IMG/VR virus record: IMGVR_UViG_3300037454_000334
Span: 1 to 64,000 of that record
DNA from: a virus
Lineage: Duplodnaviria; Caudoviricetes
Reading direction: 5' to 3' (one strand)
DNA: 64,000 nucleotides
Position numbers and translations under genes: made by a program. Positions 1,099 to 31,758 of the stretch are shown in pieces. Positions within the stretch are counted from its first letter, which is position 1; every line of letters starts with the position of its first letter. A model generated the notes under the pieces. That model was not told the origin of the DNA, searched no databases, and saw only the letters and a program-made list of their open reading frames with translations.

Positions 1099-1280
1099 TC
1101 AGTCCTCCTTATGTTTCTTTGCCCACTCCTCGCTAATCTGGTCGAGTTCGTAGATTTCGTCGCGCTCCACGATGCCGTCGCGGGTGATGACGTGTTCATA
1201 GCAGTCGTCCATATCGTCCACATCCTCCACCTCCGGCACGGTGTCGCCACCTCACTCTTTGTCATTTTGTCGTTTGTCAT
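1099..1280 (-). pseudogene. gene remnant (start and acidic C-terminus in different frames)
   Basis: ATG at 1280 has a typical ggcgatATG context, but the protein-like frame DTVPEVEDVDD...KHKED* ending at 1099 is out of frame with it. Confidence 0.45.
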
Positions 1281-1314
1281 ATCGCCTTAGTCCTTTAACA
1301 TTCCAACTTCCTTT
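1275..1314. repeat. 40-bp perfect direct repeat, copy 1 (copy 2 at 9674-9713)
   Basis: tgtcatatcgccttagtcctttaacattccaacttccttt is identical in both places. Confidence 0.95.
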
Positions 1315-1365
1315 TAATCTCTAATGCTTCGTTGTAAGTCATATACGAAATATTGCACCATCACC

Positions 1366-1836
1366 CTACCCTTTCTTTAGGAAGTTCTTGATAAACTTGT
1401 CGTACATCGCGCTGACCTCCTTGGCGGCACTCTCCTCGGTGATGTAGAGCGGTGCCAGGATATCGTCGAGGTTGTCGGCGATGTCGAAACGGAACGTCTC
1501 GGTGAAGAAGGCAATATTGTCGTGATCCTTGATGTCGTTCATGATGATACCCGGATATGGAGCTGACAGCATGACATATCGGCATTCAAGACAGGTCTGT
1601 ACCTTGTCGCTGTCGTCCGCACTGGTCTCGCCATGCACGGAGGCGATATAGTAGGTCACGCCCTTATATCGCTTAAAGCGTTCGCCGTCGGCCTTGAAGA
1701 ACTTCCCACGCAGGTGGCCGTATCGCTCACGGGTTATCTCGTCGATACACTCCGAACGGCGCTTGCGGTTGGCAAACAATTTGCGAACCAAACTCTGCTG
1801 CTTCTTGATCGCAGCCAAATACTCTTCTTGTTTCAT
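1366..1836 (-). CDS. hypothetical phage protein
   Basis: 156-aa ORF with A-rich start context. Confidence 0.7.
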   Translation of the reverse strand: MKQEEYLAAIKKQQSLVRKLFANRKRRSECIDEITRERYGHLRGKFFKADGERFKRYKGVTYYIASVHGETSADDSDKVQTCLECRYVMLSAPYPGIIMNDIKDHDNIAFFTETFRFDIADNLDDILAPLYITEESAAKEVSAMYDKFIKNFLKKG

Positions 1837-1856
1837 AATTTCCTTATTCCTTTATA

Positions 1857-2717
1857 TTATACAAACCGCCAGTTTTTATCAATATCAACTACGGCGACGT
1901 TTTTGGGCATATCGGGCATGACGGTGCGCCAGTCGCAATAGCTGTTCGTGATTGTCACCTGGTGGTAATTGTAGGCAAGAACCTGTATGCCCTTTGAATT
2001 GACCATGTGAGTGACAAAGATACGCCGCTGGCGGTCGGGATAGTGATTGCGCAGCAGTTCGGCTATGGCAGCAAAGGTTCCGCCGCCGTCGCAAAGGTCG
2101 TCGATTACAAGGAACTGCGCCTGCGGATGGCGACCAACGATGTCGTTTACCACCTCGTCGGCATCGTCTTGCAGTTCGAGTGACAGGATTTTTCCAGTTG
2201 ATAGGTCGCGCTTCTTGTGGGCTATGATTTTCGGATGCGCATCACGACTGTACCGCTCGGCAGCTCCTGCGTCTGGATGAACGATGATATCTGTGTCCCA
2301 CACAAGTCCTGGTTTCATATTGATGCCGCAGCGTGCCCAACAGTTGTGTATCTCACGGTCGGTGCGCTCGCTGTGCGGTTCCAATACCTGCACCTTACGT
2401 GCTCCGAGTCGGTTAATGATGTCGGCCACGATACCGAGTGAGAATGCCTCGCCGTAGCTGATGACGCGATCCATTCGCATCGACATGAGGTAGGCAATAT
2501 CGAGGTCGAATACAATCCCCTGCCGATGCAGCACGTCGCCAATCTGCATCAACAGGAAGAGGTCGTCGGGACTGCTGACGCGGCAGCGCACCAGTACGTC
2601 GGACTTGCGGTCGAAATCTTCAATCCATATATGCGGCTCGCCGTCGTTGAATGTCAGCGTGCGGTAGCCAATGTCGCTGCGGTCACTGTGCAGCAGGTTC
2701 AGTGTTAGTTGTTTCAT
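1857..2717 (-). CDS. ribose-phosphate pyrophosphokinase-like protein (candidate Adps of NARP1)
   Basis: FNDGE, YLMSMRMDR, EPHS, PDAGA and the PRT motif VIDDLCDGGGTF; next to a Nampt-like gene. Confidence 0.88.
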   Translation of the reverse strand: MKQLTLNLLHSDRSDIGYRTLTFNDGEPHIWIEDFDRKSDVLVRCRVSSPDDLFLLMQIGDVLHRQGIVFDLDIAYLMSMRMDRVISYGEAFSLGIVADIINRLGARKVQVLEPHSERTDREIHNCWARCGINMKPGLVWDTDIIVHPDAGAAERYSRDAHPKIIAHKKRDLSTGKILSLELQDDADEVVNDIVGRHPQAQFLVIDDLCDGGGTFAAIAELLRNHYPDRQRRIFVTHMVNSKGIQVLAYNYHQVTITNSYCDWRTVMPDMPKNVAVVDIDKNWRFV

Positions 2718-3127
2718 ACTTTTGATTCTTCTTGTTCGGTTATTATGATGTCTAAGATACCGCAGGCTTCTGAAAGTCCTGCACGGTCATCTATCAGGAT
2801 GTTGTAGTAAGGTTTGCGGCAACCTTTGCAGACTATCGGGTTTTCGTTCACGTAGTCGATGCGGATGCCGAAGTGCTGGCAATAATGGCGGATGAACGCC
2901 AGTTTCTCATCGCCCTCATTCGACGTGAGCAGTATCATCTTGTGGCCCTGCTCCGAGCATCGGCGCAACAGACTGATGATGCCGCTGTAATCGAAGCCCT
3001 GGTTGTGATAGTCGAAGATGGTATTGTCAAAATCGAAGGCGACAAACAGGGAACCGTGCGCAGCCAGTTCGCTGCGCAACCGCTCCACTTGCATATCCAT
3101 GTTGATGGGAACCCGTATCATTTCCAC
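2714..3127 (-). CDS. HAD-superfamily phosphatase-like protein
   Basis: Motif I FDFDNT and motif IV LIDDRAG; overlaps both neighbours. Confidence 0.75.
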   Translation of the reverse strand: MEMIRVPINMDMQVERLRSELAAHGSLFVAFDFDNTIFDYHNQGFDYSGIISLLRRCSEQGHKMILLTSNEGDEKLAFIRHYCQHFGIRIDYVNENPIVCKGCRKPYYNILIDDRAGLSEACGILDIIITEQEESKV

Positions 3128-4659
3128 CTATACTTTATAGAATCCTCAATACTCTTGTCAAGGTTGGCGCGAACCTCGGCCAGCGTGAAGTCACGCAGCA
3201 ACTTGCCGTCCTCGAACACCGTCACAAGACAACCGCCCTGCTCTTCCTCGCGGGTCACACCATCCTTGGCATAGTAGCGTCCATGCTCGTCCTGCTCCAC
3301 GCGGATCAGTCCCTTCAGCGAGTTCTTCGTACCGCTGTCGGTCTTGGGCTGCTTGAAGATGTCGTGTCCCTCACCGTTAATCTGACACCACGTAGCCTTG
3401 ATAGCGAATCCCAGCGAGTCGCGGCTCTTATACTGATATGTGAACGAGCCGAAGCCCAGCACGATGTTCGTGGCGGCAAAACCCTTGGCCTCCAGCCGAC
3501 GGTAAATTTCAGCCTGACGGTCGAGCGTGATAGCATCGCCGTAAATCATACCGATGTGCGGGTCGAGCACCTTGTAGCCGGACTCGTTCACCGTGCCACC
3601 GAACATTTCCCACAGCAGTTCGTAGGTGCCGCGCTTCTCGCAGTCGGGAATCTCGTGGATTTCCTGGAACGACATTTCGTCGTCGTAGTCCTTCTGATCC
3701 CATCCGCAGATAATCTTCACGGGGTCGCCGCTGTCGGGACGGATAACCAGACGCCCGTCGCGGCTCATAATCTCCTGTTTCAGCTGCGGCACGATGTTGG
3801 TGATGACATTCCAGTAGTCCCACGTGTCGCTGACGATAGAGAGGAAACCTTGCGGATAGACCTCGGTCAGCAGTCGGCGGTAGGTGTCGAGTTCAGTGTC
3901 CTTGCCACCAGCGCACATCACCGAGTGTTCCGTTGCAGGGACGGTGGCGGCAATCAACTCCTTGTCAGCGTCGGCATTGTAATATGTCTCCAATGCGGCG
4001 ATGGCGGGCAGCGTCTCTGAGCCGTTGAAAGCCGTCATGTGACCCATGCCGCTCATAATGGCCGCCTCGATGCCAGCCATACCGCGCATTGAGAAGTCGT
4101 GACATAGGAATCCGAGGTCGTCGCCGGCAAAGCCCGTCTTCTGGGCATGTTGCATCAGTGCCTTCTTGGCCATGCGTGCCGACGTTGCCGACGTGCAGGG
4201 GAGCCACAGCGATGCGGAGAACAGCGTCTCCAGATAGTTCGTGAGCCAGAAGAAGTCGGGGTGCGTGTTCTCCACCGTCAGCATCGGACAACGGATGGGA
4301 CATACCACACCCTCGGGCAGCGACTTGATGCGGATAGGCAAGTAGCCCAGGTCGTGCAGTTCGGCAATGTGCTCCGTGCCGACATTGTTCTGCGGACCGA
4401 GGAACGTGTCAACACGGCGCTTGAACTCGCCCACCACTTTCTCCTTCGGCTGCTGGAAGAAGCCTTCGTTGAACTGCTTGATAAGATACTCCTTGACGAG
4501 ATACTGCAGTCCAAAGACCACGGCGCCCTCGTCGCCGCCCTTCATCCAGTGAGCCGAGCGCGGCGTCCAGTTACTGTAAACATACTCCGTCCCTTTCGGG
4601 TACTGGTTGCGGTGGCCTAATTTGTAGCCGTCCGTCAACAAAATAGTCTCTTTGTTCAT
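3118..4659 (-). CDS. nicotinamide phosphoribosyltransferase-like protein (candidate Namat of NARP1)
   Basis: LLTDGYKLGH, HDFSMRG, PATEHSVM, SIVSDTWD, VIRPDSGDP and IYGDAIT motifs of the NAMPT family. Confidence 0.93.
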   Translation of the reverse strand: MNKETILLTDGYKLGHRNQYPKGTEYVYSNWTPRSAHWMKGGDEGAVVFGLQYLVKEYLIKQFNEGFFQQPKEKVVGEFKRRVDTFLGPQNNVGTEHIAELHDLGYLPIRIKSLPEGVVCPIRCPMLTVENTHPDFFWLTNYLETLFSASLWLPCTSATSARMAKKALMQHAQKTGFAGDDLGFLCHDFSMRGMAGIEAAIMSGMGHMTAFNGSETLPAIAALETYYNADADKELIAATVPATEHSVMCAGGKDTELDTYRRLLTEVYPQGFLSIVSDTWDYWNVITNIVPQLKQEIMSRDGRLVIRPDSGDPVKIICGWDQKDYDDEMSFQEIHEIPDCEKRGTYELLWEMFGGTVNESGYKVLDPHIGMIYGDAITLDRQAEIYRRLEAKGFAATNIVLGFGSFTYQYKSRDSLGFAIKATWCQINGEGHDIFKQPKTDSGTKNSLKGLIRVEQDEHGRYYAKDGVTREEEQGGCLVTVFEDGKLLRDFTLAEVRANLDKSIEDSIKYRWK

Positions 4660-4687
4660 AATCTTGATTTTTGTTTGTTTGTGATTG

Positions 4688-4978
4688 TTATTCTTTACTG
4701 CCTCTCTTTTTTTTCTCGTCTAAAATTTTCTGGCGCTCCTGATTGAAAGCGTCAAACCGCTGTTGAAGTCTGCTACGACTGCGTTTGGCTTTCACAATCT
4801 GATAGATTACCCATCCGATAAAAATTAAAATGCAGATACAGGCAGGAACCCATAGCGGGGCTGTCACCCACCACCACGACCAGTCAATGACGTGCGTCAG
4901 TTTCAGGACGAGAAACACAATGAACAGCACTCCGCCAAAGCCGAGTCCGCTTGTTGATGAACTTGATTTACTTTCCAT
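4688..4978 (-). CDS. small membrane protein
   Basis: FLVLKLTHVIDWSWWWVTAPLW motif; two TM helices. Confidence 0.75.
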   Translation of the reverse strand: MESKSSSSTSGLGFGGVLFIVFLVLKLTHVIDWSWWWVTAPLWVPACICILIFIGWVIYQIVKAKRSRSRLQQRFDAFNQERQKILDEKKKRGSKE

Positions 4979-5027
4979 GATTCTTTTGTTTTTTAATTTG
5001 TGAATAATTTGTGATAATTTATGTTAC

Positions 5028-5855
5028 TTAAGCTCTCAGTTCCTTCATCTCAAAAGTCTTCAGCATCGTGTAGTGGATGCCGTCAATCTCTGCGTGCCAC
5101 GAATGGTGGTAGTGACCGTAGAGCCAGTTCCTGACGGGGTGACAATGGCGGCGCAGATACTCCAGCAGCGTGTCCATCGTCTCGCGGTCGCGCTTCATAT
5201 CGTCGGGCAGCGTCGGGTCGTTCTCCACCAGGTAAGACAGCCACGTCGGAGGTGTCACGTCCTCGCACATCGACGGCGGGATATGGCTCACCACCGTGTC
5301 GAACGTCCTTCCTATCCTGTCCACCGATGCCAGTGCCGACTCGTCGTAATAGGGTGTCTCAAACGGCCACCAGTCGGCAGGGTCGAAGTTCTTCACCTCG
5401 TCGAGATAACAGATGCCGATGCGCACCCTCGGCCCCTCGTTCTTGGTCAGACTGAACACGGGCTTGTAACTCTCTCGGTTATGCCGGTCAACGCTCGTGG
5501 CACCACCGACACACAGAATCCTCTTGCCGCAGGCCGCCACCATCGAGTAGTCGGGCACGGCTATCCACCGCTCCTTGTTGATCTCCTCGCCGTCGAAGTA
5601 AGCGGGGTTGTCGTGGTTGCCGCGCACAAACACCACCCAACAATTAGCCCGCTCCAGCTTCGGCAGCACCCGTTCGTAAACCGCATCGTAGTAGCCGCGC
5701 CTGTGGAATCCGAAACCGCAGTCGCCTGCCACGATAACCACCGTGTCCGTCATCTGATACATCGTCACCATGCGGTACACCAGCTCGTCGAACTTGCCGT
5801 GGATATCACCACAGACCACCACGCTTTTCGCATCAAAAAAATCGTAAGTGTTCAT
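5028..5855 (-). CDS. calcineurin-like metallophosphoesterase
   Basis: GDIHG, AGDCG, RGNHD, SH and GHYH motifs. Confidence 0.9.
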   Translation of the reverse strand: MNTYDFFDAKSVVVCGDIHGKFDELVYRMVTMYQMTDTVVIVAGDCGFGFHRRGYYDAVYERVLPKLERANCWVVFVRGNHDNPAYFDGEEINKERWIAVPDYSMVAACGKRILCVGGATSVDRHNRESYKPVFSLTKNEGPRVRIGICYLDEVKNFDPADWWPFETPYYDESALASVDRIGRTFDTVVSHIPPSMCEDVTPPTWLSYLVENDPTLPDDMKRDRETMDTLLEYLRRHCHPVRNWLYGHYHHSWHAEIDGIHYTMLKTFEMKELRA

Positions 5856-5896
5856 AATTCCTTATTCTTCTATCGTTGGTTCGTAAGTTTTGATTT

Positions 5897-6667
5897 TCAT
5901 ACCAGCTCCTTTACCATTTTCCTGATATTCTTCACATACCCACGTGTCATTTCGATGAAGTTGACCTCCGGGTTCTTCGAGAGGGCGCAGATGAGCAGCG
6001 GGTTATGCACCACGGCGATGATCTGCGTGTGCGGCTTGTGGAAGTCGAGCACGGCCTTGATATGCCCGATGTTCTCGATGTCGAGGTTCCTGTCGGGCTC
6101 GTCCATCAGGATGGTCCACTCGTCGCCATCGACAATGTGGTCGGCAACGTAATCCGTATAGGGCTTGTAGTTGTCCTTGAACCGCGTGTAGTCGAACGTC
6201 AGGTTCGCGCCCTTGCTGAACATCCTGGCGAAGAGCGCGTTCAGTGCTACGATGACGCCCTCGCCCGTTGACGACTCCCGCTGCCCGCAGAACTCGCTGA
6301 TGGAGTGGTCGTTCTCGAATATCTCGTCGTTGTGCTGCCTCTCCCCCGCATGGCACAGGCGGAACGTGTTGCGCCTATAGTCGGCATACACGTCGGCACC
6401 TGCATACATGTGCTTGTCGTCGCCAAGGCCGAAGCAGATGGCATTGATGTTGTGGTTGAACATACCCGCCGAGCACTCCGACAGGTCCACCAGCAGATAC
6501 TTTCTTATCAGGTTCATCAGCGTGGTCTTGCCGCAGCCGTTCTTGCCGACGATGATGTTCACGCCAGGCTTAAACTCATACGTCTTGCCGTTCTTGAACG
6601 CCCCGAGTCCGCTCAGATACTCGATGGGCGTGTCTTCGTTGTTGTTGATTACCACCTTTGTGATCAT
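5897..6667 (-). CDS. ABC/AAA-type ATPase
   Basis: Walker A GKNGCGKT, signature-like SSTGE, Walker B LMDEPD, H-loop VVHN. Confidence 0.85.
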   Translation of the reverse strand: MITKVVINNNEDTPIEYLSGLGAFKNGKTYEFKPGVNIIVGKNGCGKTTLMNLIRKYLLVDLSECSAGMFNHNINAICFGLGDDKHMYAGADVYADYRRNTFRLCHAGERQHNDEIFENDHSISEFCGQRESSTGEGVIVALNALFARMFSKGANLTFDYTRFKDNYKPYTDYVADHIVDGDEWTILMDEPDRNLDIENIGHIKAVLDFHKPHTQIIAVVHNPLLICALSKNPEVNFIEMTRGYVKNIRKMVKELV

Positions 6668-6763
6668 AATTTCTTTCCTTTTTTATATATTGTCTGTTTT
6701 GTCCGTCGGCACGTGCCAGTTTCGAGATTGGCAAAAGCCGATGCCGTTTTCAGCCCACGAATT

Positions 6764-7924: not shown

Positions 7925-7928
7925 AATT

Positions 7929-8255: not shown

Positions 8256-9080
8256 TCAGTCCTCCTTCCTTATTCCTAATATCTCCCTCGCCACGGCCAG
8301 CTTCGGGTCGTTGTCGAACAGACGGCGCGAGTTCTTGCAGCGCATACAGGGACGGAACTGGCGCATGTGGCTGTAGATGGTGTCGGTGGTGTCGGTCGTG
8401 ACGTTGCCGACGCTGGGGCAGAGCCACGACTCGGACAGATGCACGTCGCCGTTGAAATCGACGCAGGGCGAGCACATCTGCGTGTGGCTCTCCAACTGTA
8501 TGCCGTAGCCCTTCGGGTTGCGCACCTGATGGGCTGCCAGCGCCGCATTGAGGCACGAGCAGCGGTAGGGGTTCTTCTCGACCTCCGCCTGGCAGTCGGC
8601 ATTCGTCCGCGCCCGTCCCAGGTCCTGCATCCAGATGTGCTCCTCGTCCACCTTGCAGTGGGGAATCTGCTCCAGCTCCGTGCGCAGGTCTTGGATGTAG
8701 TCGTAGTCCTGATACCACCGCTTGTTGGTATATACCTGCGTGAACAGGTAGCTTTTCAGCCTTGCCACGCGCCACATCATGCGCCGCTTCTTCATGTCCT
8801 CCATCCACGTGCCGTTGGTAGCCACGGCGAACATGATGGGCACGCCCGTCTCGCGCTTCATCTTCTGCGACACGTCGTCGAACCACCTGAGCATCCGCTC
8901 CATGTCTGGGTTCATCGTCGGCTCGCCGCCCGTAATCAGGAACAGGTGCCAGCCCGTCTCGCAGCCGAACCGCACGGCACTCTTAAACGTTTCCAGCGAC
9001 ATCAGCCCGCCGTCCTCACGGCTGTCCTGCAGGCAGTGCGGGCACCCCTCGTCGCATCGGTTTGAAATCTGTATCAGCAT
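8256..9080 (-). CDS. radical SAM protein
   Basis: CDEGCPHC (CxxxCxxC), TGGEP, TNGT; Cys-rich SPASM/twitch-like C-terminus. Confidence 0.88.
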   Translation of the reverse strand: MLIQISNRCDEGCPHCLQDSREDGGLMSLETFKSAVRFGCETGWHLFLITGGEPTMNPDMERMLRWFDDVSQKMKRETGVPIMFAVATNGTWMEDMKKRRMMWRVARLKSYLFTQVYTNKRWYQDYDYIQDLRTELEQIPHCKVDEEHIWMQDLGRARTNADCQAEVEKNPYRCSCLNAALAAHQVRNPKGYGIQLESHTQMCSPCVDFNGDVHLSESWLCPSVGNVTTDTTDTIYSHMRQFRPCMRCKNSRRLFDNDPKLAVAREILGIRKED

Positions 9081-9083: not shown

Positions 9084-9401
9084 TCAGTCCTCCTCGTATT
9101 TGTATGGTTTGCCATTGATACTTACAATATCGCACTGAAATACTGGATTGGGCGGCACGGGCTGACGCTTCTTTGGTTCGCCCTGCTTCGTCAGTTCGGT
9201 GCCGATGTACTTCATGTATGGCACTGGGTGGCCGTGCATGATTATATTCTCTACCTTGATAGTGTGGTAGTGGTCAGTGATGATGTTGCCAGGGTACACG
9301 GGATTATGCTCGCAAGCATAAAGTTTCCTGATGTGATTCTTCTTTTCGTCACACTCCACTTGCAACTCAATCAACTTTTTCTGTAATTCTTCTTTCGTCA
9401 T
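9084..9401 (-). CDS. hypothetical phage protein
   Basis: Packed ORF ending in EED*. Confidence 0.7.
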   Translation of the reverse strand: MTKEELQKKLIELQVECDEKKNHIRKLYACEHNPVYPGNIITDHYHTIKVENIIMHGHPVPYMKYIGTELTKQGEPKKRQPVPPNPVFQCDIVSINGKPYKYEED

Positions 9402-10823: not shown

Positions 10824-10837
10824 CGCTCAGTCCTCCT

Positions 10838-11882: not shown

Positions 11883-12416
11883 TCAGTCCTCCTTCTTCGC
11901 TTTCACGCAGTCCCTGATTATCTGCTCGGTGATGACGCCGCCATTGGCACGGCTGGAGGCATCCAGTTTCTCCACGTCGAACTCTTCGGCTGAGAACTTG
12001 AACTGAATCCAGTTCGTCTCATATTCGCGGTAGTCGAGCCACGTCTTCGGATCGTCGGTGTCGAGGATGTAGCGCACCATGCGCAGCAGTCGCAAGCCTG
12101 CGGCCTTGGAGGTGATGAATCCTGACACGTCGAATGCCGATGCGCCACGGCTCTTCCAATACTCGCCGACGGCTGGCCGCTCGTCCTTGGGGTCGAATGT
12201 GATTACGTCGGAGCGGAAGAACTCGATACCTGCCGTGGTTCCGTCGCTGCCCCATGCGAGGTAGCCGCTGAACGGGCGGTATTCCTTACGCTCCGTAGAG
12301 TCCTTGATGACAAACTCGACCTCCGACGGGTTTTTGTGATTCAGTTCGCAGTTGTGTACCCAGTCCTCGACCCACTGCTGCAGGTTTGCGAGGGTAATTT
12401 TCTTTTGTTCGTTCAT
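11883..12416 (-). CDS. hypothetical phage protein
   Basis: Likely start MNEQKK at 12416; ends KED*. Confidence 0.7.
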   Translation of the reverse strand: MNEQKKITLANLQQWVEDWVHNCELNHKNPSEVEFVIKDSTERKEYRPFSGYLAWGSDGTTAGIEFFRSDVITFDPKDERPAVGEYWKSRGASAFDVSGFITSKAAGLRLLRMVRYILDTDDPKTWLDYREYETNWIQFKFSAEEFDVEKLDASSRANGGVITEQIIRDCVKAKKED

Positions 12417-12838: not shown

Positions 12839-12852
12839 CGTGTCAGTCCTCC

Positions 12853-13891: not shown

Positions 13892-13907
13892 ACGTCAGTC
13901 CTCCGTA

Positions 13908-14231: not shown

Positions 14232-14245
14232 ACGTCAGTCCTCCC

Positions 14246-16450: not shown

Positions 16451-16504
16451 CTCTTATACATTATATATATTATATGCGTGATGCGGCACGCTGACCTTTT
16501 CGGC

Positions 16505-16610
16505 TGCAAATTTACAACTTAAATCTGAAAATATCATAATGATAATATCGTTTTAATAATTTTTAAGTTCAATTTTGTTGTTTTTATGGGATTTATTCTA
16601 TAAATTTGCA
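16505..16610. promoter_or_regulatory. divergent Bacteroidetes-type early promoters
   Basis: TAAATTTG -7 boxes on minus (16507-16514) and plus (16601-16608) strands with an AT-rich spacer. Confidence 0.75.
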
Positions 16611-22375: not shown

Positions 22376-22540
22376 ATGGAAATAACGAAGTATCTGTGCG
22401 AGTTCTTTTTCACGAACTTTTGGCATTGGCTCGGGCTGGTGGTTATCCTGTCCGTGATGTTCAAATTCGGGCTGGTGTCGTTCATCACCGACAACTCCAA
22501 GAAAATCGTGAAACAGGACGAAGAAAAAAAGGAGGACTGA
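22376..22540 (+). CDS. small membrane protein (54 aa, not in ORF track)
   Basis: MEITKYLCEFFFTNFWHWLGLVVIL...KKED*; ends in junction motif. Confidence 0.65.
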   Translation: MEITKYLCEFFFTNFWHWLGLVVILSVMFKFGLVSFITDNSKKIVKQDEEKKED

Positions 22541-25408: not shown

Positions 25409-25672
25409 ATGGCAGCAACAGATTATGTAATTGTGACGGGATGGATGAATGCCTACCTCACGAAGAAAAAGAAGCCCACGAAGAAGGGGCCGCAGACAAT
25501 GAGTGAAGACCGCCGACCCATCACCGAAGGCGAAATGATTGGACTCTTTGAGTTCTATCTGCGCAAATGGTGTGAGGAACATGAAGGCGAGGACACCGTA
25601 GTAATCACCAACAGCGACGGCAAGAAGATATTCGAGGCGACGCTGTTAGATAAGGAGGATAAGGAACTATGA
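25409..25672 (+). CDS. hypothetical phage protein
   Basis: Packed ORF. Confidence 0.7.
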   Translation: MAATDYVIVTGWMNAYLTKKKKPTKKGPQTMSEDRRPITEGEMIGLFEFYLRKWCEEHEGEDTVVITNSDGKKIFEATLLDKEDKEL

Positions 25673-26121
25673 AGTACATTGAAGCAGAGAAAATCACAGC
25701 CGAGATTGATAAGATTATCGACGGGCTGAAAAGAAATTGTAACCCCGACCCATTGGGTACAACGGAAGAATGTTTGGCAGATGCCGAGATTGAGGCACTT
25801 GGGCTGGTGAAGGACATCATCGGTAAGATGAAGCAGGAAGAACCGACACCTCCAGGCATCGAAGAGGAAAGTCAGCGAAAAGGCTGGCTCGACTACGGAC
25901 TGATGATGAGCGAGATTGGATTGCACCGCTACAATGCGATACACCGCATCAAGGAGCACAAGGAGCAGTTCAACCCCCAGGCAGTTCCCGACCTCTATCA
26001 CGTCGCAGAATACTATAAGTCTGTAGGCGCGGAACTAACCTGCTGCTGCCTACAGGCATACGGCAAGGACTTCATCTTCACACAGGATGAGGTAAAGGAA
26101 ATCATCGAGAAGAAGGACTGA
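25669..26121 (+). CDS. hypothetical phage protein
   Basis: Packed ORF. Confidence 0.7.
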   Translation: MKYIEAEKITAEIDKIIDGLKRNCNPDPLGTTEECLADAEIEALGLVKDIIGKMKQEEPTPPGIEEESQRKGWLDYGLMMSEIGLHRYNAIHRIKEHKEQFNPQAVPDLYHVAEYYKSVGAELTCCCLQAYGKDFIFTQDEVKEIIEKKD

Positions 26122-26124
26122 CCA

Positions 26125-26475
26125 ATGATGACCCACGACGAAATTTCACGCTTCTTCAGCGAGGAAGACGTAAAGAAGGCTTTCCAACTACCAGACTGGC
26201 CTGCGGGTACGGAGGTGGTGTGTTATTGCCGCTCTACCGACAGCCGAGACACCATTGAGCAGATAGCCCAGCAGAGGCAGTGGAAGATTGTGAAGTACGT
26301 TCACATCGACGAACTGCCGATAGCCAAGCTCTACGAGCCTGGGCAGGTGATATTCGCCAAGCGCGAGGCGTTGGAGTGGAAAAGAGATTCAACGATGCCG
26401 ACCTACGAAGAATGGCGCAATCAGATGCTGGGCGGTCTGCGTCCGTCGGACTGGGATAGATTCATAGTAAGATAA
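26125..26475 (+). CDS. hypothetical phage protein
   Basis: Packed ORF. Confidence 0.7.
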   Translation: MMTHDEISRFFSEEDVKKAFQLPDWPAGTEVVCYCRSTDSRDTIEQIAQQRQWKIVKYVHIDELPIAKLYEPGQVIFAKREALEWKRDSTMPTYEEWRNQMLGGLRPSDWDRFIVR

Positions 26476-26491
26476 TTAAAAGGAATACGAT

Positions 26492-27256
26492 ATGAAAGAA
26501 GTAACATTATATGGCGGCACGATTGACAGCTGCCTGAAGGGTTTAAGGGAAATGGCCGCTGCCGACGAGAGCGGCGAGGTGTTGAAGGCCGTGTTCAATG
26601 ACAAGTACCTGCTTTCGACCGACACCGACGATGACGCATATCTGCGCATCACGGGCATGACGAAGGCCGAACACGACGAGTACGTGAGGAAGTGGCAGGA
26701 GGACTACGAGGCCAAGCGGAAGGCGCACGAAGCCCGCATCCCCGAACTGACGGAGCACTACCGCAAGGTGGCTCGCGGCGTGATCATCGAGAGCGAACTG
26801 GAGTATTGGGACGAGATAGTGCCCATCCGTCTCGGCGACATCTACCGTGGCATGGAGCTTGACCAGGTGCTCGACTGTGCCAGGGTGATGCGCGACGAGA
26901 CGCTGAGCCGTATAGAGCGACTGCGCAAGGCTTACAAGATTTTCAACGATGCCGGTCACAGCGGCATGTCGGCGGGGCTGACGATGGCGATGCTACGCCG
27001 CTTCTGTCCCGACGGCAACGAGCTGGCCGATGCCTGCAACGAGTCCCGCTACGACCCCGACCACAAGACGAAGCTGTACGTCAGCCGCGACGGTGACGGC
27101 AAGCTGCTCCTGCACTTTGCCTATCCGCATTGGGGCGACAACCACGACTTCCGCAGCCCGAACCAAGTGGAGCTGAACCCGCTGCTGTTCCCGGAGGTGA
27201 AGCCCGGCAGTAGGGTGGAGTACGAGGCAGGAGAGGTGTTTGATACGAATAGATAA
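26492..27256 (+). CDS. hypothetical phage protein
   Basis: 254 aa; GHSGMS motif. Confidence 0.75.
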   Translation: MKEVTLYGGTIDSCLKGLREMAAADESGEVLKAVFNDKYLLSTDTDDDAYLRITGMTKAEHDEYVRKWQEDYEAKRKAHEARIPELTEHYRKVARGVIIESELEYWDEIVPIRLGDIYRGMELDQVLDCARVMRDETLSRIERLRKAYKIFNDAGHSGMSAGLTMAMLRRFCPDGNELADACNESRYDPDHKTKLYVSRDGDGKLLLHFAYPHWGDNHDFRSPNQVELNPLLFPEVKPGSRVEYEAGEVFDTNR

Positions 27257-27267
27257 GGAATACGACA

Positions 27268-27591
27268 ATGACAGATTTTGAGACTGCAATGCTCTCGTTC
27301 CTGCAGGATGCGCAGAACGAGTTTAACAGCGAGAAGGAGGTGGAGCACTTCATCGGGAAGCACGCTCCCAAGTTGATGGAAGCCGCCCGCAAGCAGCTGA
27401 TGGCGGAGATTTGGCACAAGGAGTCGGAACACCCCGGCAACAGGCATCCGTACCCCGTGCTCAATCCAGACGGGGAAATGGCATACGCTTACTACGAGGA
27501 ACTGTGCGGCTGGCAGTTCGACCGGGACTTCAAGCGCAGCACACGTATGCTCTGGCTCGACATCGAGAAGATTTTACCAAAGGAGGACTGA
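27268..27591 (+). CDS. hypothetical phage protein
   Basis: Packed ORF ending KED*. Confidence 0.7.
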   Translation: MTDFETAMLSFLQDAQNEFNSEKEVEHFIGKHAPKLMEAARKQLMAEIWHKESEHPGNRHPYPVLNPDGEMAYAYYEELCGWQFDRDFKRSTRMLWLDIEKILPKED

Positions 27592-27594
27592 CGT

Positions 27595-27720
27595 ATGTGC
27601 GACCCAAATAATTCGCTCTACCGAGAGTATATCCACTATAAGGCTTTAGAAGCTGACTGTGGGATAGTATCTTCAACGACGTTTGAAGAGTGGCTTACAA
27701 ACCGCCGCAAGAATAAATAA
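27595..27720 (+). CDS. small hypothetical protein (41 aa)
   Basis: ATG after junction motif; fills the gap exactly. Confidence 0.5.
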   Translation: MCDPNNSLYREYIHYKALEADCGIVSSTTFEEWLTNRRKNK

Positions 27721-27737
27721 TTAAAAGGAATACGACA

Positions 27738-28133
27738 ATGAGCAACATTAACGACATTCCCACATTCGAGGTGCCAAAGCCTGACCCTGAACTGATGCGT
27801 GTCCCAAAAATCACGATGAAGACACGTCTTCGATTGGAGCGTAAGTATGGCATTGAGGTCAATCGCAGACTGCCGCGACGGCTGAAGAAGGCGGCGAGGC
27901 ACGTGGACTTCGAGGTGTGCGACATGCAGCCGATGGCGGACGTGTCGGCGGACGATCGCAGCGTGGTCATGCGGCTCGACGTGGACTACCGCGTGAGGAT
28001 GCGTCCGGCGGGCTACCCTCGGACGCGGCAGGTGCAGCGGTTCGTCGCCCTCTTCCGCCGCAAGTTGGGGCAGGACGGCGACAAAGGCCCCCAGTGCGAA
28101 TACACCGACTGCCCGCTGTGCAACGGGAACTGA
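27738..28133 (+). CDS. hypothetical basic protein
   Basis: Packed ORF. Confidence 0.65.
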   Translation: MSNINDIPTFEVPKPDPELMRVPKITMKTRLRLERKYGIEVNRRLPRRLKKAARHVDFEVCDMQPMADVSADDRSVVMRLDVDYRVRMRPAGYPRTRQVQRFVALFRRKLGQDGDKGPQCEYTDCPLCNGN

Positions 28134-28169
28134 AAAGGAATTATAAACATTTTAATAAATTTAGGCGAA

Positions 28170-28508
28170 ATGATTTGCAAGAATTGTGGAACAAGAATGG
28201 TGCGTGACACCTCAAAGGTGCTTACGTCGATACCGCCGCAGTATGAGTACAAGTGCGCGAAATGCGGCTGTATGGCTTATGGAACGATTGAAGCCGATTG
28301 GAATGATGCCTATGGGCAGGAGTCGATAGAGGACATCCTTACAGGCAAGAACGAGAAGCCGACCAATGCCGTAGAGCAGATGATTGGCTTTCTGACCTCT
28401 CCGATAGCAAGGCGCAAGGGCGTGACGATTTCTTCCGACGACTGCGCTGTATGGGCTGACGAGCTGAAGAACTTTTTAGCGGGTAAGGAGCCGACACCGA
28501 TGGTATGA
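28170..28508 (+). CDS. Zn-ribbon protein
   Basis: CKNCG...LTSIPPQYEYKCAKCG. Confidence 0.75.
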   Translation: MICKNCGTRMVRDTSKVLTSIPPQYEYKCAKCGCMAYGTIEADWNDAYGQESIEDILTGKNEKPTNAVEQMIGFLTSPIARRKGVTISSDDCAVWADELKNFLAGKEPTPMV

Positions 28509-28957
28509 AGAATCTGCATCAAGACTTTTACAAGGTCGCGTTCCTGCTGGCAGGATTGTCAGCACTCCACGTTGCAATGGCGAATTGGCTTGGTTTTGCC
28601 GTTCAGTTGATAATTGCGCTTTTCTTTGCTTGCTTGGGCTTTGCCGTACAAGGTAAGAACAAGAGAGACGAAGAGAAGCGTGAGATTGCCGCTCGTGCAG
28701 AAGCGTTTGAGCAATTTCGTGCGGCCTGCGAAAAGAAATGCGAGGAAGCAAAGAATGACCCCGAACATTACGGCGAGCGTCCAGTAGTCCTCGACTTCGG
28801 CAACGGCATCAAGATTCCCGTTCCGTTGAAGACCCCAGGTAAAAACTGGCAGGTAGGCTTCTATGAGCAGAAGGAGGGCACCATATTGCCGTATCTGCAT
28901 GAGACCGACAAGCCGGAGGAGCCAGACTATAACATTAAAAAGGAAAGCGAAGTATGA
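28505..28957 (+). CDS. membrane protein
   Basis: Two N-terminal TM helices. Confidence 0.7.
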   Translation: MKNLHQDFYKVAFLLAGLSALHVAMANWLGFAVQLIIALFFACLGFAVQGKNKRDEEKREIAARAEAFEQFRAACEKKCEEAKNDPEHYGERPVVLDFGNGIKIPVPLKTPGKNWQVGFYEQKEGTILPYLHETDKPEEPDYNIKKESEV

Positions 28958-29022
28958 CAAGAATCATCAAATTCAGAGGAAAGACAGAGGGCGGCGAGTG
29001 GATAAATGGAAATCATGGATAA
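28954..29022 (+). pseudogene. YopX-family N-terminal remnant
   Basis: MTRIIKFRGKTEGGEWINGNHG* matches the YopX start motif IKFRGK...GEW..G, then stops. Confidence 0.6.
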
Positions 29023-29039
29023 ACAGAAAGACGGAGATA

Positions 29040-29470
29040 TGAAACAGACAGAAGAAATCAAGGCGATGATTCGCGAGATGATGAATCAGGAGATGGAGAA
29101 CTTCAAGGAGGCCGTCAGCAACGGCGAGGCTGAGGAAACGGCTTCCCCCGTGGTCTATGGGATGCTGCAAGTGCTGATGGCGAAAATCGAAGCGATGCCG
29201 AAGGTATGGCACAAGCCTGACGAAGAACCAGACCGCACACGAGAGCCTATACTCCGGTTACATCGTGATATGTCGGCTGGTACGCTGTTCTTCAGTATGA
29301 TGAAAAGCGAGGAAGAGGTGCAGATGATGATGGAGGGCATCGTGGCATGGTGTTACTTTGAAGACTTGTTGCCACAATGGATTAAGGTTTACGACTATGA
29401 CAAGCTGAATACAAAGAAGGGTGTGATACGCGACGATGAATTGGATAGCAATATGACAAAGGAGGACTGA
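29040..29470 (+). CDS. hypothetical phage protein
   Basis: ORF ending KED*. Confidence 0.7.
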
Positions 29471-29473
29471 ACT

Positions 29474-29908
29474 ATGCAACCACACATACAATACACAACC
29501 GCTGACTTCGCGCACATCGCAGCGACGGAGTTTGCGGACTACGGGTTTCACTTGACGCAGAAGTGGCAGCACTGCAAGCGCATTACAGAGCGCGACTACC
29601 GCAATGCCTATATCCTTTGGGCGATGCGGAGGTTCGGCGATGTGGACGTGGCGCGGGAGTTCCTCGACTATGCCATGCCTGACATGTTCGACCCCGTTTG
29701 TGACATCAACGGACTGCGCATGAGCCAGCTCAAAGCGATGGACAAGGAGCAGATGACTGAGCGTGTCCGTACCGACGTGCGGAACCTTGCCTTAGCAGCA
29801 AGATGCGACATCAAGACGGCCTGGGATAAGTTGGAGCGGCTGATGCCCGACCTGTACGACTACAGGCCAGTGACCGACGAAGAGAAACAAAAATGGTATT
29901 ACATATAA
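29474..29908 (+). CDS. hypothetical phage protein
   Basis: Packed ORF. Confidence 0.7.
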   Translation: MQPHIQYTTADFAHIAATEFADYGFHLTQKWQHCKRITERDYRNAYILWAMRRFGDVDVAREFLDYAMPDMFDPVCDINGLRMSQLKAMDKEQMTERVRTDVRNLALAARCDIKTAWDKLERLMPDLYDYRPVTDEEKQKWYYI

Positions 29909-29919
29909 TCAATGGCGAT

Positions 29920-30468
29920 ATGAAGAAAGAAGAACCGAAGAAAGGCTACGAATCACTCACTGCTTCATACAGGTATTGGGCTGAGCGTGAGCCTGGCCGC
30001 AAGGACGAATGGAAACAAAAGTATGAATGGGCACTGGGGCGAGCCCAGCAATATGCAGACCGTCTCGGTGTAACACGTGACGAGGTACTGGCTGTATGGG
30101 AACAGGAACGCGACTACTGGTATGTGAACTACTATCAGGAGAGCAATCAGCCCGACTTGACGAGGCGTAATGTGGTGACACTGGAGCAGTGGGAGGCCGA
30201 GGGTGAAAGGCTCTATGGCAAGAACCACCTCGAATGGCGGTTTAGATGCCCCACCTGCGGCCATATACAAACACCACAAGAGTTCAAAACCGCAGGCATC
30301 GATCCGCACAAGGCTTATCAGAGCTGCGCCTCACGCTACGGGCTGGGTGGCGAGAGTACCTGTAAATGGACCGTCTGTGGACTGCTAATAACAGGCGGTC
30401 GCTACGTCATCGACGCCCGCTACAGTCCGCGACTGATATTCGAGTTTGCAGATAAAAAGGAGGACTGA
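29920..30468 (+). CDS. hypothetical protein (VVA0879-like, Cys motifs)
   Basis: WRFRCPTCGH...QSCASR...CKW. Confidence 0.65.
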   Translation: MKKEEPKKGYESLTASYRYWAEREPGRKDEWKQKYEWALGRAQQYADRLGVTRDEVLAVWEQERDYWYVNYYQESNQPDLTRRNVVTLEQWEAEGERLYGKNHLEWRFRCPTCGHIQTPQEFKTAGIDPHKAYQSCASRYGLGGESTCKWTVCGLLITGGRYVIDARYSPRLIFEFADKKED

Positions 30469-30471
30469 GCG

Positions 30472-30819
30472 ATGACCGACGAGCAGAAGCGTGAGCATAT
30501 AAGTTTCCTCTACAGGCAGCTTGACACCTGCGGGCAGATAATTGCAGAGACGGAGCCAGGGCCAGAGCGGTCGAGGTACAATCGTGAGTATCGAGGCATC
30601 GTCAATGCCCTGCGCAGACTGGAACCCGAGAAGTGGAAAGACTATCCCGTGCTCCGTCAGCACACCACTGAGGGGCGGAACGAGATGGTACAGAAGTTTC
30701 TCGCCACCCACCGCTGTCCGAAGTGCGGCGGCGAGTTCAAACAGACCCGCAGCGGTTCGTTTCGCATCGTCTGCCAGCAGTGTGGACAAAAAGCACAATT
30801 AAAACGCAGAAATAAATAA
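30472..30819 (+). CDS. Zn-ribbon protein
   Basis: CPKCGG...CQQCG. Confidence 0.7.
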   Translation: MTDEQKREHISFLYRQLDTCGQIIAETEPGPERSRYNREYRGIVNALRRLEPEKWKDYPVLRQHTTEGRNEMVQKFLATHRCPKCGGEFKQTRSGSFRIVCQQCGQKAQLKRRNK

Positions 30820-30837
30820 CTTAAAAGGAATACGACA

Positions 30838-31278
30838 ATGACAGAGAAGAAATTAAAGTATGCCTTCGGTACGAGCGACACGCACTGCGAGGCTGACCTC
30901 TTCGACACGATCGAAGAAGTGATTGAGTATGCACAAGCGTCATGGGACAATAAGGACGGCAACCCGTTCGACGAGGACTGCGACTACTCTGATTGCATCT
31001 ACGTTGGAACGGCTGAGACCTACGAGCCTGCCGACTTTGCGCCATCGTTGGACGATATAGCCGACCAGATGACGGACAAGTTCTACTGCGACCACAACAT
31101 CGACGACGATGCCGACGTGCACTACTACAAGAAAGAGGAAGCACAAAAGGAGTGGCGCGAGTTCATCAACAAGTATTTCGACATCCCTTGCACCATTATT
31201 GCCAACTGGAACGTCGGTATCTACGACCTGAAAGAGCACAAGTGGGTGGAGAGGTACGACAAGAAGCAGGAGGACTGA
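30838..31278 (+). CDS. acidic hypothetical protein
   Basis: Packed ORF. Confidence 0.7.
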   Translation: MTEKKLKYAFGTSDTHCEADLFDTIEEVIEYAQASWDNKDGNPFDEDCDYSDCIYVGTAETYEPADFAPSLDDIADQMTDKFYCDHNIDDDADVHYYKKEEAQKEWREFINKYFDIPCTIIANWNVGIYDLKEHKWVERYDKKQED

Positions 31279-31281
31279 CCC

Positions 31282-31758
31282 ATGAAACGAATTATCAATT
31301 ACATCAAGCAATGGATGGCTCTACGGGATCGGGAGAAGGCCGTGGCCAAGTTGGAAAGGGAGATGCAAGACCGTATGACCTGCATCGACGAGAAGATGGC
31401 ACTGAGGGAAGTGACCGATGTCTATGCCAAGTATGTCTGCATGATGCACGGCTGGCGAGACAGCATCGGCAATTATGTAGGCGACGAGTTCTGCGAGGTC
31501 AGCCTGTCGTTTATGAACGGCTACGTCAAGGCACTGCACGACAACGGGCTGGAGTTCCAGAACGGACTGGTAAAGAAGCGCGACATCACGGAGGTAATGC
31601 CGAGCGGTGCGCTCGACTACTACCGCAAGGATGCCATTCGTGACACCAAGCGCGAGTGTATCGCCGCCCTCGAAAAGGTGATGGCGAAGTACGAAACATC
31701 GAAAGCCAACATCAACACTATTGTCAGCGCTTTCAGGAAAGAGATCAAGGAGGACTGA
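31282..31758 (+). CDS. hypothetical phage protein
   Basis: Packed ORF. Confidence 0.7.
   Translation: MKRIINYIKQWMALRDREKAVAKLEREMQDRMTCIDEKMALREVTDVYAKYVCMMHGWRDSIGNYVGDEFCEVSLSFMNGYVKALHDNGLEFQNGLVKKRDITEVMPSGALDYYRKDAIRDTKRECIAALEKVMAKYETSKANINTIVSAFRKEIKED

Follow-up and report, generated by a model that had tools for sequence, protein, structure and literature searches.

The question raised by this locus is why a single 10-nt word, composed of GGAGG, AC, and TGA, should stand between so many unrelated genes of one phage. The window analyzed here comprises the first 64,000 nt of IMG/VR record IMGVR_UViG_3300037454_000334, part of a 106,914-bp contig from an uncultured rumen phage whose host is probably a member of the Prevotellaceae (Prevotella-type bacteria), an assignment that indirectly supports the Bacteroidetes host assumed in the first-pass annotation. 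That annotation proposed either a translational stop-restart element or a recombination joint for single-gene cassettes. Two questions, Shine-Dalgarno (SD) use in Bacteroidia and module exchange at short linkers, become testable on one small element.

Placement and anatomy of the junction 10-mer

The exact 10-mer occurs 14 times, against 0.14 expected and a maximum of 1 in dinucleotide-preserving shuffles, which supplies the enrichment statistics suggested in the first-pass annotation. All 14 copies are in sense orientation at gene boundaries (Table 1), with coordinates and strands as first described, and all lie within the first 32 kb of the contig; the remaining 75 kb contains zero additional exact copies, in agreement with the earlier remark that none was seen in the late region. 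Versions with one or two mismatches are at chance level overall (60 found versus 60.7 expected), so the enrichment belongs to the exact word. The two variants listed earlier, at 325 and 26112, are both real, each 3 nt before an ATG.

Table 1. Junction sites and the divergent promoter region, by position in the window (G-numbers are related phage records)
Feature	Position	Strand	Junction	Further observations
One-letter variant (C to T)	325..334	-	3 nt before ATG of 65-322	
Junction 10-mer	1099..1108	-	TGA closes small ORF 1099-1239; N3, then ATG of 682-1095	
Junction 10-mer	8256..8265	-	TGA is stop of radical-SAM gene 8256-9080; N3, ATG of 7929-8252	
Junction 10-mer	9084..9093	-	TGA is stop of 9084-9401; N3, ATG of 8256-9080	
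Junction 10-mer, redundant stop	10827..10836	-	TAA of 10838-11395 is 1 nt before; N3, ATG of 10311-10823	Upstream gene end joined to a different gene in G004
Junction 10-mer	11883..11892	-	TGA is stop of 11883-12566; N3, ATG of 11361-11879	Orthologues of downstream gene preceded by one-letter motif variants
Junction 10-mer, redundant stop	12843..12852	-	TAA of 12853-13515 abuts; 4 nt, ATG of 12422-12838	In G004, another upstream gene precedes this downstream gene
Junction 10-mer, redundant stop	13895..13904	-	TAA of 13908-14231 is 3 nt before; N3, ATG of 13562-13891	
Junction 10-mer, redundant stop	14235..14244	-	TAA of 14246-14722 is 1 nt before; N3, ATG of 13908-14231	Upstream gene is DUF3310/nucleotide-kinase-like
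Divergent promoter region	16500..16610	.	Between the two motif-bearing arms; one TAnnTTTG per arm	
Junction 10-mer	22531..22540	+	TGA is stop of 22376-22540; N3, ATG of 22544-22990	Downstream gene is a DNA methyltransferase N-terminal fragment; its first codons repeat those of contig gene 75304-76080
One-letter variant (second G to A)	26112..26121	+	Stop of 25669-26121; N3, ATG of 26125-26475	G to A weakens GGAGG; orthologous junctions have exact motif in G002, another variant in G004/G010
Junction 10-mer	27582..27591	+	TGA is stop of 27268-27591; N3, ATG of 41-codon ORF 27595-27720	ORF follows a different upstream gene in G001
Junction 10-mer	29461..29470	+	TGA is stop of 29006-29470; N3, ATG of 29474-29908	In G004, another upstream gene precedes this downstream gene
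Junction 10-mer	30459..30468	+	TGA is stop of 29893-30468; N3, ATG of 30472-30819	
Junction 10-mer	31269..31278	+	TGA is stop of 30838-31278; N3, ATG of 31282-31758	Homologues of upstream gene end joined to two other downstream genes in G004 and G005
10-mer without ATG	31749..31758	+	Ends gene 31282-31758; 30-nt A-rich host-type leader, then gene 31789-32073	Same gene end in G010 is followed by ATG at N3

The junctions are laid out as AA, GGAGG, AC, TGA, a spacer of 2 to 5 nt, and ATG. Judged from its letters, the 10-mer is a perfect SD-like box at canonical spacing, fused to the upstream gene's stop codon. The start codon follows after exactly 3 nt in 12 of 14 copies, as had been claimed, after 4 nt at 12843, and not at all at 31749. 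TGA is the stop of the upstream gene at 10 of the 14 sites, and the in-frame triplets preceding it read as the KED, EED, or QED termini noted earlier at most sites, clade-wide. At the four sites described as having a redundant stop (10827, 12843, 13895, and 14235), the upstream gene had indeed already ended at a TAA 0 to 3 nt before the 10-mer.

Leaders bearing GGAGG are concentrated in the two arms (17 of 61, versus 2 of 96 elsewhere in the contig). At the start of each arm, the first gene is preceded by a host-type leader lacking an SD, and the divergent region at 16.5 kb was the sole place where TAnnTTTG elements (Bacteroidota -7 type) were seen. The arm proteins are mostly ORFans, and an SbcCD-like nuclease pair is encoded in one arm. 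The motif changes orientation at ~16.5 kb, at the cumulative GC skew minimum, as might be expected of an orientation-dependent DNA signal read relative to replication (Chi-like or KOPS-like). However, gene orientation flips at the same place and confounds the comparison, and such a signal needs neither a distance of 2 to 5 nt to ATG (62 of 67 copies in the clade) nor an upstream stop inside the word; we regard this explanation as scarcely credible. No dyad partner accompanies the 10-mer, whose reverse complement is present only as the motif of the other arm.

Conservation of the junction in related phages

Exact copies were found in 9 of 11 related records, for a clade total of 67 (the 14 described here and 53 in eight uncultured relatives), and these stand between unrelated genes; reversed-word controls gave 0 to 2 per record. 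No other 10-mer is as common in the leaders of the clade (54, versus 15 to 19 for the next class). An ATG lies 2 to 6 nt downstream in 62 of 67 copies (mode, 3 nt), while four copies end a gene with no ATG after them. According to gene calls made in this analysis, TGA is the upstream stop in 52 of 67 copies, and nearly all others have an upstream stop no more than ~8 nt ahead of the motif. The flanking consensus is AA before the 10-mer and C after it; A occupies position -1 of GGAGG in 54 of 67 copies and position -2 in 47 of 67, which extends the box to AAGGAGG. The distance from the end of GGAGG to ATG is 7 to 10 nt in 61 of 67 copies (mode, 8), within the 5 to 10 nt taken as SD spacing. Two further properties of SD-assisted termination-reinitiation junctions were found, namely, a stop near the start and complementarity to the anti-SD, the latter judged against the canonical anti-SD of all Bacteroidetes (PMC3155529) and not against the host's own 16S rRNA. 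For 53 of the 54 motif leaders, a gene on the same strand lies within 40 nt upstream, so that no first gene of an operon is led by the motif.

The reading that we favor, at about an even chance, is that the 10-mer is a standard stop-restart connector that doubles as a portable border for single-gene cassettes. In the polycistronic transcripts of the two divergent accessory arms, the junction would do three jobs in 13 to 15 nt: the 10-mer would provide the upstream gene with its final two codons and its UGA stop, place a perfect AAGGAGG box 7 to 10 nt ahead of the next AUG, and set that AUG 2 to 5 nt past the stop. A ribosome finishing gene n would then be passed straight to gene n+1 (termination-reinitiation coupling), presumably with GGAGG pairing to 16S rRNA. 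The position, orientation, spacing, embedded stop, and absence from promoter-proximal genes all fit the stop-restart part of this reading. Coupling through +3-nt stop/start spacing or through SD-assisted reinitiation is established, as exemplified by Escherichia coli rplK/rplA, with its +3-nt spacing, and by Haloferax volcanii, in which the SD works for reinitiation but not in 5' UTRs (PMC12548453, PMC6728339). The phage junctions resemble these systems in having stop and start 2 to 5 nt apart, GGAGG in or just after the end of the upstream coding sequence, and the motif only at operon-internal genes. They differ in that dozens of unrelated junctions share one invariant 10-mer, that the host lineage is the one group reported to be SD-blind for initiation and reinitiation, and that the part after GGAGG is conserved even where the stop is redundant.

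A simpler explanation is that the word is an ordinary strong ribosome-binding site plus stop, made common by duplication and descent within one phage lineage. The combination of SD, stop, and ATG does arise by chance in many phages (at least 117 single hits in IMG/VR), and even Bacteroides phage B40-8 has one similar leader. However, 2,193 of 2,211 instance pairs among the 67 copies lack a similar flank, and the word is kept in relatives whose helicase is only 50 to 55% identical; its frequency in Prevotellaceae MAG chromosomes is at background, and GGAGG occurs in just 2 of 46 B40-8 leaders and 2 of 96 non-arm leaders. Unrelated flanks together with cross-clade conservation largely refute this explanation, which we consider very improbable.

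The 10-mer is also conserved as a unit beyond what an SD and a stop require. AC fills both free positions in 56 of 72 SD-NN-stop junctions, the redundant stop is kept in 14 of 20 GGAGG leaders, and where GGAGG has decayed, the GGACTGA half remains. This last observation is explained neither by SD pairing nor by the requirement for a stop, and the earlier contention that ACTGA is more than a stop codon is upheld by both the redundant stops and the decayed boxes.

Such conservation, extending to the GGACTGA half alone, might suggest that a sequence-specific factor (a phage endoribonuclease or a translational repressor) recognizes the word in RNA, so that it would act as a timing switch by which the arm transcripts are shut off or processed together. 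T4 RegB cuts GGAG in the ribosome-binding sites of early mRNAs, and T4 RegA is a translational repressor. Like RegB targets, the phage motif is a GGAG-containing ribosome-binding site limited to one temporal or positional gene class: it is confined to the two transcription arms, absent from the other 75 kb, and always in sense orientation, and the mostly ORFan arm proteins could include such a factor. Unlike RegB targets, the conserved word is 10 nt long with the stop codon included, and no RegB homologue was detected; PF10715 (RegB family) had no match in five records, which is weak evidence since the control genomes had no match either. No Rfam family and no conserved local structure were found at the motif, and an RNA target would explain neither the built-in upstream stop nor the spacing of 2 to 5 nt to ATG. 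We consider this alternative rather unlikely.

A perfect SD-like box in a reportedly SD-blind lineage

Reporters in Prevotella bryantii were unresponsive to SD sequences (PMC3155529), and ribosomes of Bacteroidia sequester the anti-SD (PMC7797042, PMC9976891, PMC13000453). Bacteroidia retain the 16S anti-SD but hide it, and only rpsU in Flavobacteriales is known to use an SD (PMC9976891, PMC13000453). Since host ribosomes are reported to be SD-blind, a conserved perfect SD-like box is odd, and the published behavior of Prevotella and Flavobacterium ribosomes (PMC3155529, PMC7797042) argues against the stop-restart reading, as do two observations made here: the phage encodes no bS21, and even rpsU lacks an SD in three Prevotellaceae MAGs.

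The closest parallel is the leader of Flavobacteriales rpsU, which encodes bS21 and likewise carries a perfect SD where standard ribosomes cannot see it. That SD is read by ribosomes lacking bS21, which shows that a subpopulation with a free anti-SD can exist in Bacteroidia (PMC9976891, PMC13000453). The two cases differ in that rpsU is one autoregulated host gene with a 5' leader, while the phage motif serves many genes and lies at internal junctions. It is conceivable, though we think it improbable, that the clade relies on or creates ribosomes with a free anti-SD, giving the accessory-gene block a privileged, host-orthogonal translation channel. Candidates may include bS21-poor, phage-modified, or post-termination ribosomes, and the arrangement would mirror, in reverse, that of phages with a bS21 gene of their own. 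A perfect SD conserved at about one-quarter of the clade's accessory-gene junctions would offer evidence from nature that SD pairing can be of consequence in these cells, perhaps solely at reinitiation or solely during infection, and the junction would also serve as a ready-made reporter and as a candidate part for polycistronic expression in Bacteroidota.

Gene-content breaks and cassette exchange

Since the same word closes and opens many unrelated genes, the connector would also be a portable boundary for cassette exchange among coinfecting relatives. Cassettes carrying the majority word could recombine with the largest number of partners, and the word would thereby stay uniform. A comparison of related phages, the check suggested in the first-pass annotation, located gene-content breakpoints at the motif with nucleotide precision. 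In the 18 informative instance pairs with a similar flank, similarity was upstream only in 10, downstream only in 7, and on both sides in 1; in the 17 one-sided pairs, identity ends 0 to 2 nt after the motif or begins 0 to 3 nt before it. Of the blastn HSPs at motif sites, 62 end there and 1 continues across, versus 150 and 29 at other arm junctions (P = 0.0014). Homologues of both flanking genes keep the motif ~45 to 49% of the time, versus a background of 7 to 9%. Protein adjacency is conserved in 3 of 122 comparisons at motif junctions versus 34 of 493 at other arm junctions (P = 0.09), comparisons that are not independent of one another. Nearly every gene boundary in the arms is a breakpoint between relatives, so motif junctions are only modestly more shuffled than others. 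The proposal of a shared recombination joint therefore stands as to the breaks at the motif and falls short in that most other arm boundaries break too. In terms of sequence comparison, the motif is a cassette boundary and at most a candidate cause of exchange.

The word might instead be primarily a DNA-level recombination linker (a Botstein-type module connector), a short identical border at which phage or host recombination machinery could swap any cassette. It would then look like a ribosome-binding site by inheritance or as a secondary matter, and the likeness would be idle in an SD-blind host. The precision of the breaks would suit such a linker, as would the dominance of the exact word over its own variants, which homogenization by frequent exchange predicts, the retention of the full 10-mer where its stop is unused, the four copies that end genes without an ATG, the SbcCD-like nuclease pair, and the reported indifference of the host to SDs (PMC3155529, PMC7797042). 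However, an arbitrary linker has no need to match the 16S tail as a perfect 7-nt complement, set at canonical distance from ATG (62 of 67 copies), and arm junctions without the motif are nearly as mosaic. Each gene pair has its own spacer beside the motif; this spacer is not co-inherited with either flank, including the downstream gene, contrary to the prediction of a crossover inside the 10-mer. In addition, a length of 10 bp is very small, and Pfam revealed neither a single-strand annealing recombinase nor RecA. We consider a primary linker unlikely. The shortness of 10 bp for homologous exchange, the lack of a recombinase match, the pair-specific spacer, and the modest excess of breaks at the motif also weigh against the recombination part of the stop-restart reading, in which the 10 bp may guide crossover. 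Module exchange at short shared linkers is an old idea with few clean examples; here, dozens of single-gene cassettes without relation to one another share the same 10-nt border, where the breaks between relatives fall at nucleotide resolution. In practice, the motif marks where cassettes end and where genes truly start in ORFan-rich regions of Bacteroidota phages from rumen and gut.

Among known mobile elements, the promoter-early stem-loops (PeSLs) of T4-type phages are regulatory cassettes found at the borders of indels and replacements (PMC2839356, PMC4122927). The phage 10-mer is similarly a repeated, conserved expression signal bounding small accessory genes in hyperplastic regions, and differences between related phages start and stop at it. 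PeSLs, in contrast, span tens of bases with a promoter and a terminator-like stem-loop, while the 10-mer has neither and appears to be a translational rather than a transcriptional signal that overlaps the upstream coding sequence. No early promoter was found in the junction, in which 13 to 15 nt leave no room for one, and no stem-loop was found at the motif (unpaired probability of 0.55 versus 0.60 at other junctions; P = 0.19), where the flanks are unrelated. Integron cassettes are also promoterless single genes in arrays with a conserved element at each boundary. The phage cassette ends differ in lacking an attC-type imperfect inverted repeat, and no IntI/attI/Pc platform was seen next to the motif-bearing arms. 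The genes scanned beyond 33.8 kb do include a tyrosine integrase (Phage_integrase/Arm-DNA-bind_5), apparently of phage/Bacteroidota type, which lies outside the arms.

Distribution and anatomy of the junction word

Many gene boundaries in the two divergent accessory-gene arrays ("arms") of the first ~34 kb are marked by a word of GGAGG, AC, and TGA, preceded by AA (here, the 10-mer). The first-pass annotation had listed 14 exact copies, and all 14 were recovered at the same positions, where dinucleotide-preserving shuffles predict 0.14. Versions with one or two mismatches stayed at chance level (60 found versus 60.7 expected), so the enrichment belongs to the exact word only. The annotation had seen none in the late region, and we found zero further copies in the rest of the 106,914-bp contig, an IMG/VR virus record of which the window covers the first 64 kb. 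According to our own heuristic dicodon-based gene calls, on which all gene boundaries in this analysis depend, every copy lies in sense orientation at a gene end, and 12 of 14 have an ATG 3 nt further on, as had been proposed. The spacing is 4 nt at 12843, and at 31749 a 30-nt A-rich leader separates the 10-mer from the next gene. The TGA is the stop of the upstream gene at 10 window sites; at 10827, 12843, 13895, and 14235, the upstream gene had indeed already stopped, with TAA 0 to 3 nt earlier. Both variants noted earlier, at 325 and 26112, were confirmed; their position relative to genes is that of the exact copies.

Coordinates of junction words and associated features (window positions unless marked as contig positions)
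Feature	Position	Strand	Remark
10-mer, minus-arm copies	1099 to 14244	-	eight exact matches
10-mer, plus-arm copies	22531 to 31758	+	six exact matches
Second stereotyped junction, 11-mer	26480-26490, 27255-27265, 27725-27735, 30825-30835	+	0 expected by shuffling
Divergent TAnnTTTG elements, one facing each arm	16500-16610	both directions	
NAMPT (513 aa) adjoining phosphoribosyltransferase-like gene (286 aa)	1857-4659	-	
Methyltransferase fragment, 148 aa, behind the 10-mer at 22531	22544-22990	+	
Full-length methyltransferase gene, ordinary leader	contig 75304-76080	-	

A helicase search returned nine related viral contigs (43 to 79% identity), and a pattern match added a tenth. Eight of these relatives carry exact copies (14, 11, 8, 5, 5, 5, 3, and 2), and only two short fragments lack them; the reversed word, used as a control, occurs 0 to 2 times per record. 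Other large rumen-type phage contigs also hold a few copies, and among the matches listed in an IMG/VR pattern scan, occurrences in other phages were mostly single and chance-like. Across the eleven genomes of the clade (the window contig plus the ten relatives; 1,144 genes called), there are 67 exact copies with a flanking consensus of AA before and C after. ATG lies 2 to 6 nt downstream of 62 (41 at 3 nt, 14 at 4 nt, 6 at 2 nt, and 1 at 6 nt), and in 52 the upstream gene, as called, stops at the TGA. Of all 10-mers within 24 nt ahead of a gene start, this word is the most frequent, with 54 cases in nine genomes, compared to 15 to 19 for the next class. A same-strand gene ends within 40 nt upstream in 53 of these 54 leaders, which means that the 10-mer is never the leader of an operon's first gene. 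The second commonest leader word, an 11-mer with its 15 to 19 copies in 4 to 5 genomes, sits in an A-rich leader of ~20 nt directly before four plus-arm ATGs and looks like a host-type counterpart of the 10-mer connector that lacks a Shine-Dalgarno (SD) box.

GGAGG occurs 6 to 11 nt before the start in 89 of 1,142 leaders, and in 72 of the 89, it is directly followed by two free letters and then TGA or TAA. The free pair is AC in 56 of the 72 (1/16 expected). Aspartate codons before the stop are GAC rather than GAT at 54:4, versus 70:30 genome-wide, and codon bias accounts for the AC excess in part only. This ratio also rules out selection on the C-terminal amino acid alone, as does retention of the word at untranslated sites. 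The favored stop of these genomes is TAA (54%), not TGA (31%). Where the upstream gene has already stopped, a stop triplet is kept at the motif position in 14 of 20 GGAGG leaders (~5% expected); there are also orthologous junctions in which GGAGG has decayed and the second half is retained, and ~31 leaders have the last seven motif letters before ATG with the first three missing. Because redundant stops are kept and the second half outlives GGAGG, the 10-mer is conserved as a unit, which upholds the earlier view that ACTGA is more than a stop codon. SD pairing does not explain this second half, and a requirement for a stop codon does not explain it either. That ACTGA prolongs the pairing with the 16S tail past CCUCC was discounted on inspection of the Bacteroidia tail sequence by eye, and a prfB-like +1 frameshift was rejected by inference, because the codon before the stop is unable to re-pair in the +1 frame.

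The conserved second half, together with confinement to the two arms, would suit an RNA target of a RegB- or RegA-like factor. We regard this as unlikely. No Rfam family is present in 1 to 34 kb, local RNA structure does not differ between the motif and other junctions, and a search for the RegB family, whose control was uninformative, gave no match. A replication-oriented DNA signal is very improbable, as its orientation is confounded with that of the genes and the fixed distance to ATG would be left unexplained.

Gene exchange at arm junctions

Nearly all pairs of motif instances (2,193 of 2,211) have no common flank. Ten pairs share only the upstream flank (36 nt at 92 to 100% identity), seven only the downstream flank, and one both; in the one-sided pairs, identity stops 0 to 2 nt past the motif or starts 0 to 3 nt ahead of it. 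The end of one upstream gene has a different downstream partner in each of three phages. Ordinary common descent of a ribosome-binding site plus stop is contradicted by these unrelated flanks, and we give it little credence.

The first-pass annotation had proposed checking whether gene-content breakpoints between related phages fall at the motif. They do, but nearly all arm gene boundaries are mosaic too, and the motif is only modestly more so. In blastn comparisons, 62 alignments end and 1 runs through at 53 motif sites, versus 150 and 29 at 185 other tight arm junctions (P = 0.0014) and 12 and 165 at random intragenic positions. At the protein level, the two neighbors stay together in 3 of 122 genome comparisons for motif junctions versus 34 of 493 for the other junctions of the arms (P = 0.09), or 3 of 42 versus 31 of 146 per junction (P = 0.04), and local alignment, used to class junction pairs since 12-mer sharing was too insensitive, gives 2 of 77 versus 10 of 93 two-sided pairs (P = 0.07); all of these contrasts come from few, related genomes that are not phylogenetically independent and from our own gene calls.

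Homologues of the upstream and of the downstream gene keep an exact or variant motif in 45 to 49% of cases (background, 7 to 9%), so the word travels with either neighbor. The spacer of 2 to 5 nt between the 10-mer and ATG is C/G-rich (e.g., 12839-12842, 27592-27594, and 29471-29473) and no other part of the junction is hypervariable: the spacer differs in 9 of 9 pairs with a common upstream gene and comparable spacer and in 5 of 7 pairs with a common downstream gene (90 to 100% identical), while the adjoining 36 to 50 nt are 90 to 100% identical on one side. Either the joint may be physically made at the spacer, or the spacer may be retuned after each new junction. The arm fragment and the full-length copy of the methyltransferase gene are identical over their first 24 nt, and the point at which the arm copy was fused to the connector is precisely its start codon.

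A pure DNA linker for recombination would account for the uniformity of the word and for copies without ATG but leaves SD mimicry at the correct distance unexplained; it is possible, though on balance doubtful. No RecT, Erf, Rad52, or RecA family was among the Pfam hits of the scanned proteins (60 aa or longer in the arms, 90 aa or longer at 64 to 101 kb, and three genes at 34 to 50 kb, so that only a minority of the genes between 34 and 64 kb was covered).

Translational reading and host

In its position, orientation, AAGGAGG box, spacing, built-in stop, and restriction to internal genes, the 10-mer junction looks, from sequence, like a site of termination-reinitiation. There is precedent both for a stop/start spacing of +3 nt and for reinitiation assisted by an SD, and in Haloferax, the SD is effective for reinitiation but not at 5' untranslated regions (PMC12548453, PMC6728339). 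Bacteroidia start selection relies on upstream adenines (PMC13000457); since the motif leader is G-rich and lacks them, de novo initiation at the motif should be poor. What speaks against this reading is the host. In Bacteroidia ribosomes, the anti-SD is sequestered by bS21, bS18, and bS6 (PMC7797042, PMC9976891, PMC13000453), Prevotella bryantii reporters are indifferent to the SD (PMC3155529), the prfB frameshift SD is largely unused too (PMC10798248), and Bacteroidetes genomes lack SDs at leading genes and at overlapping pairs (PMC6728339). The rpsU gene has no SD in three Prevotellaceae metagenome-assembled genomes (MAGs), and no bS21 gene was found in the phage. Since a neutral sequence would drift between unrelated genes in phages with helicases 50% identical, something reads the 10-mer. 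The recombination machinery could do so, as could ribosomes in a state that leaves the anti-SD free, or some other factor. In the cultured Bacteroides phage B40-8, GGAGG occurs in only 2 of 46 leaders; in one of these two, at 2226-2250 of that genome, a box, TGA, 3 nt, and ATG are arranged as in the 10-mer junctions, with no gene annotated just upstream.

In its working, the element would resemble translational coupling junctions as well as mobile boundaries of the PeSL type (PMC2839356, PMC4122927), although it lacks two defining features of PeSLs, the promoter and the stem-loop, and also the attC feature of integrons. Coupling junctions and mobile boundaries are already known, and the 10-mer element is a variant of these; what is uncommon is that a perfect SD is conserved although the host lineage is SD-blind. 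The searched literature does not mention the 10-mer in a phage context.

Assignment of the host to Prevotellaceae draws on MAG binning and on promoter and leader style, evidence that is indirect but consistent. Relatives of the capsid protein (94% and 47% identity) are on contigs binned into rumen Prevotellaceae MAGs, the helicase-adjacent promoter resembles the rpsU-upstream promoter of those MAGs, and GGAGG occurs in only 2 of 96 leaders outside the arms. A terminase search in bacterial genomes gave no match. The 10-mer is at background frequency in MAG chromosomes, save for one Prevotellaceae MAG (G017) in which 8 of 12 copies are clustered on contigs C74 and C76, four each on a single strand; these contigs probably come from a related phage whose fragments were binned together with the host. 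Among GenBank phages, neither a near-identity DNA search with the arms nor tblastn with the major capsid protein found a match, and therefore no cultured relative is present there.

Gene content of the contig

The arms diverge from 16.45 to 16.63 kb, and the first gene of each has an SD-less leader. The five letters after the plus-arm TAnnTTTG are identical to those after the rpsU-upstream element in two Prevotellaceae MAGs (L184 and L185). Identified arm genes encode a 902-aa SF2 helicase, two radical-SAM proteins, an SbcCD-like nuclease pair, methyltransferase fragments, and NAMPT with its phosphoribosyltransferase-like neighbor, alongside several dozen small ORFans. The NAMPT pair could form a module for NAD+ salvage, of the type proposed to let phages counter NAD-depleting defense systems. 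Outside the arms are structural genes, a DGR reverse transcriptase, and DnaN; no tRNA genes were found. Genes scanned at 64 to 101 kb plus three at 34 to 50 kb include, beyond 33.8 kb, a Rep3-type initiator, a ParA-type ATPase, and a tyrosine integrase whose arm-binding domain is of the Bacteroidota type, which together suggest a temperate or plasmid-like lifestyle. The same contig encodes a Tad2-like protein in its 64- to 101-kb part and, in the arms, a small ORFan with a weak match to Tad3.
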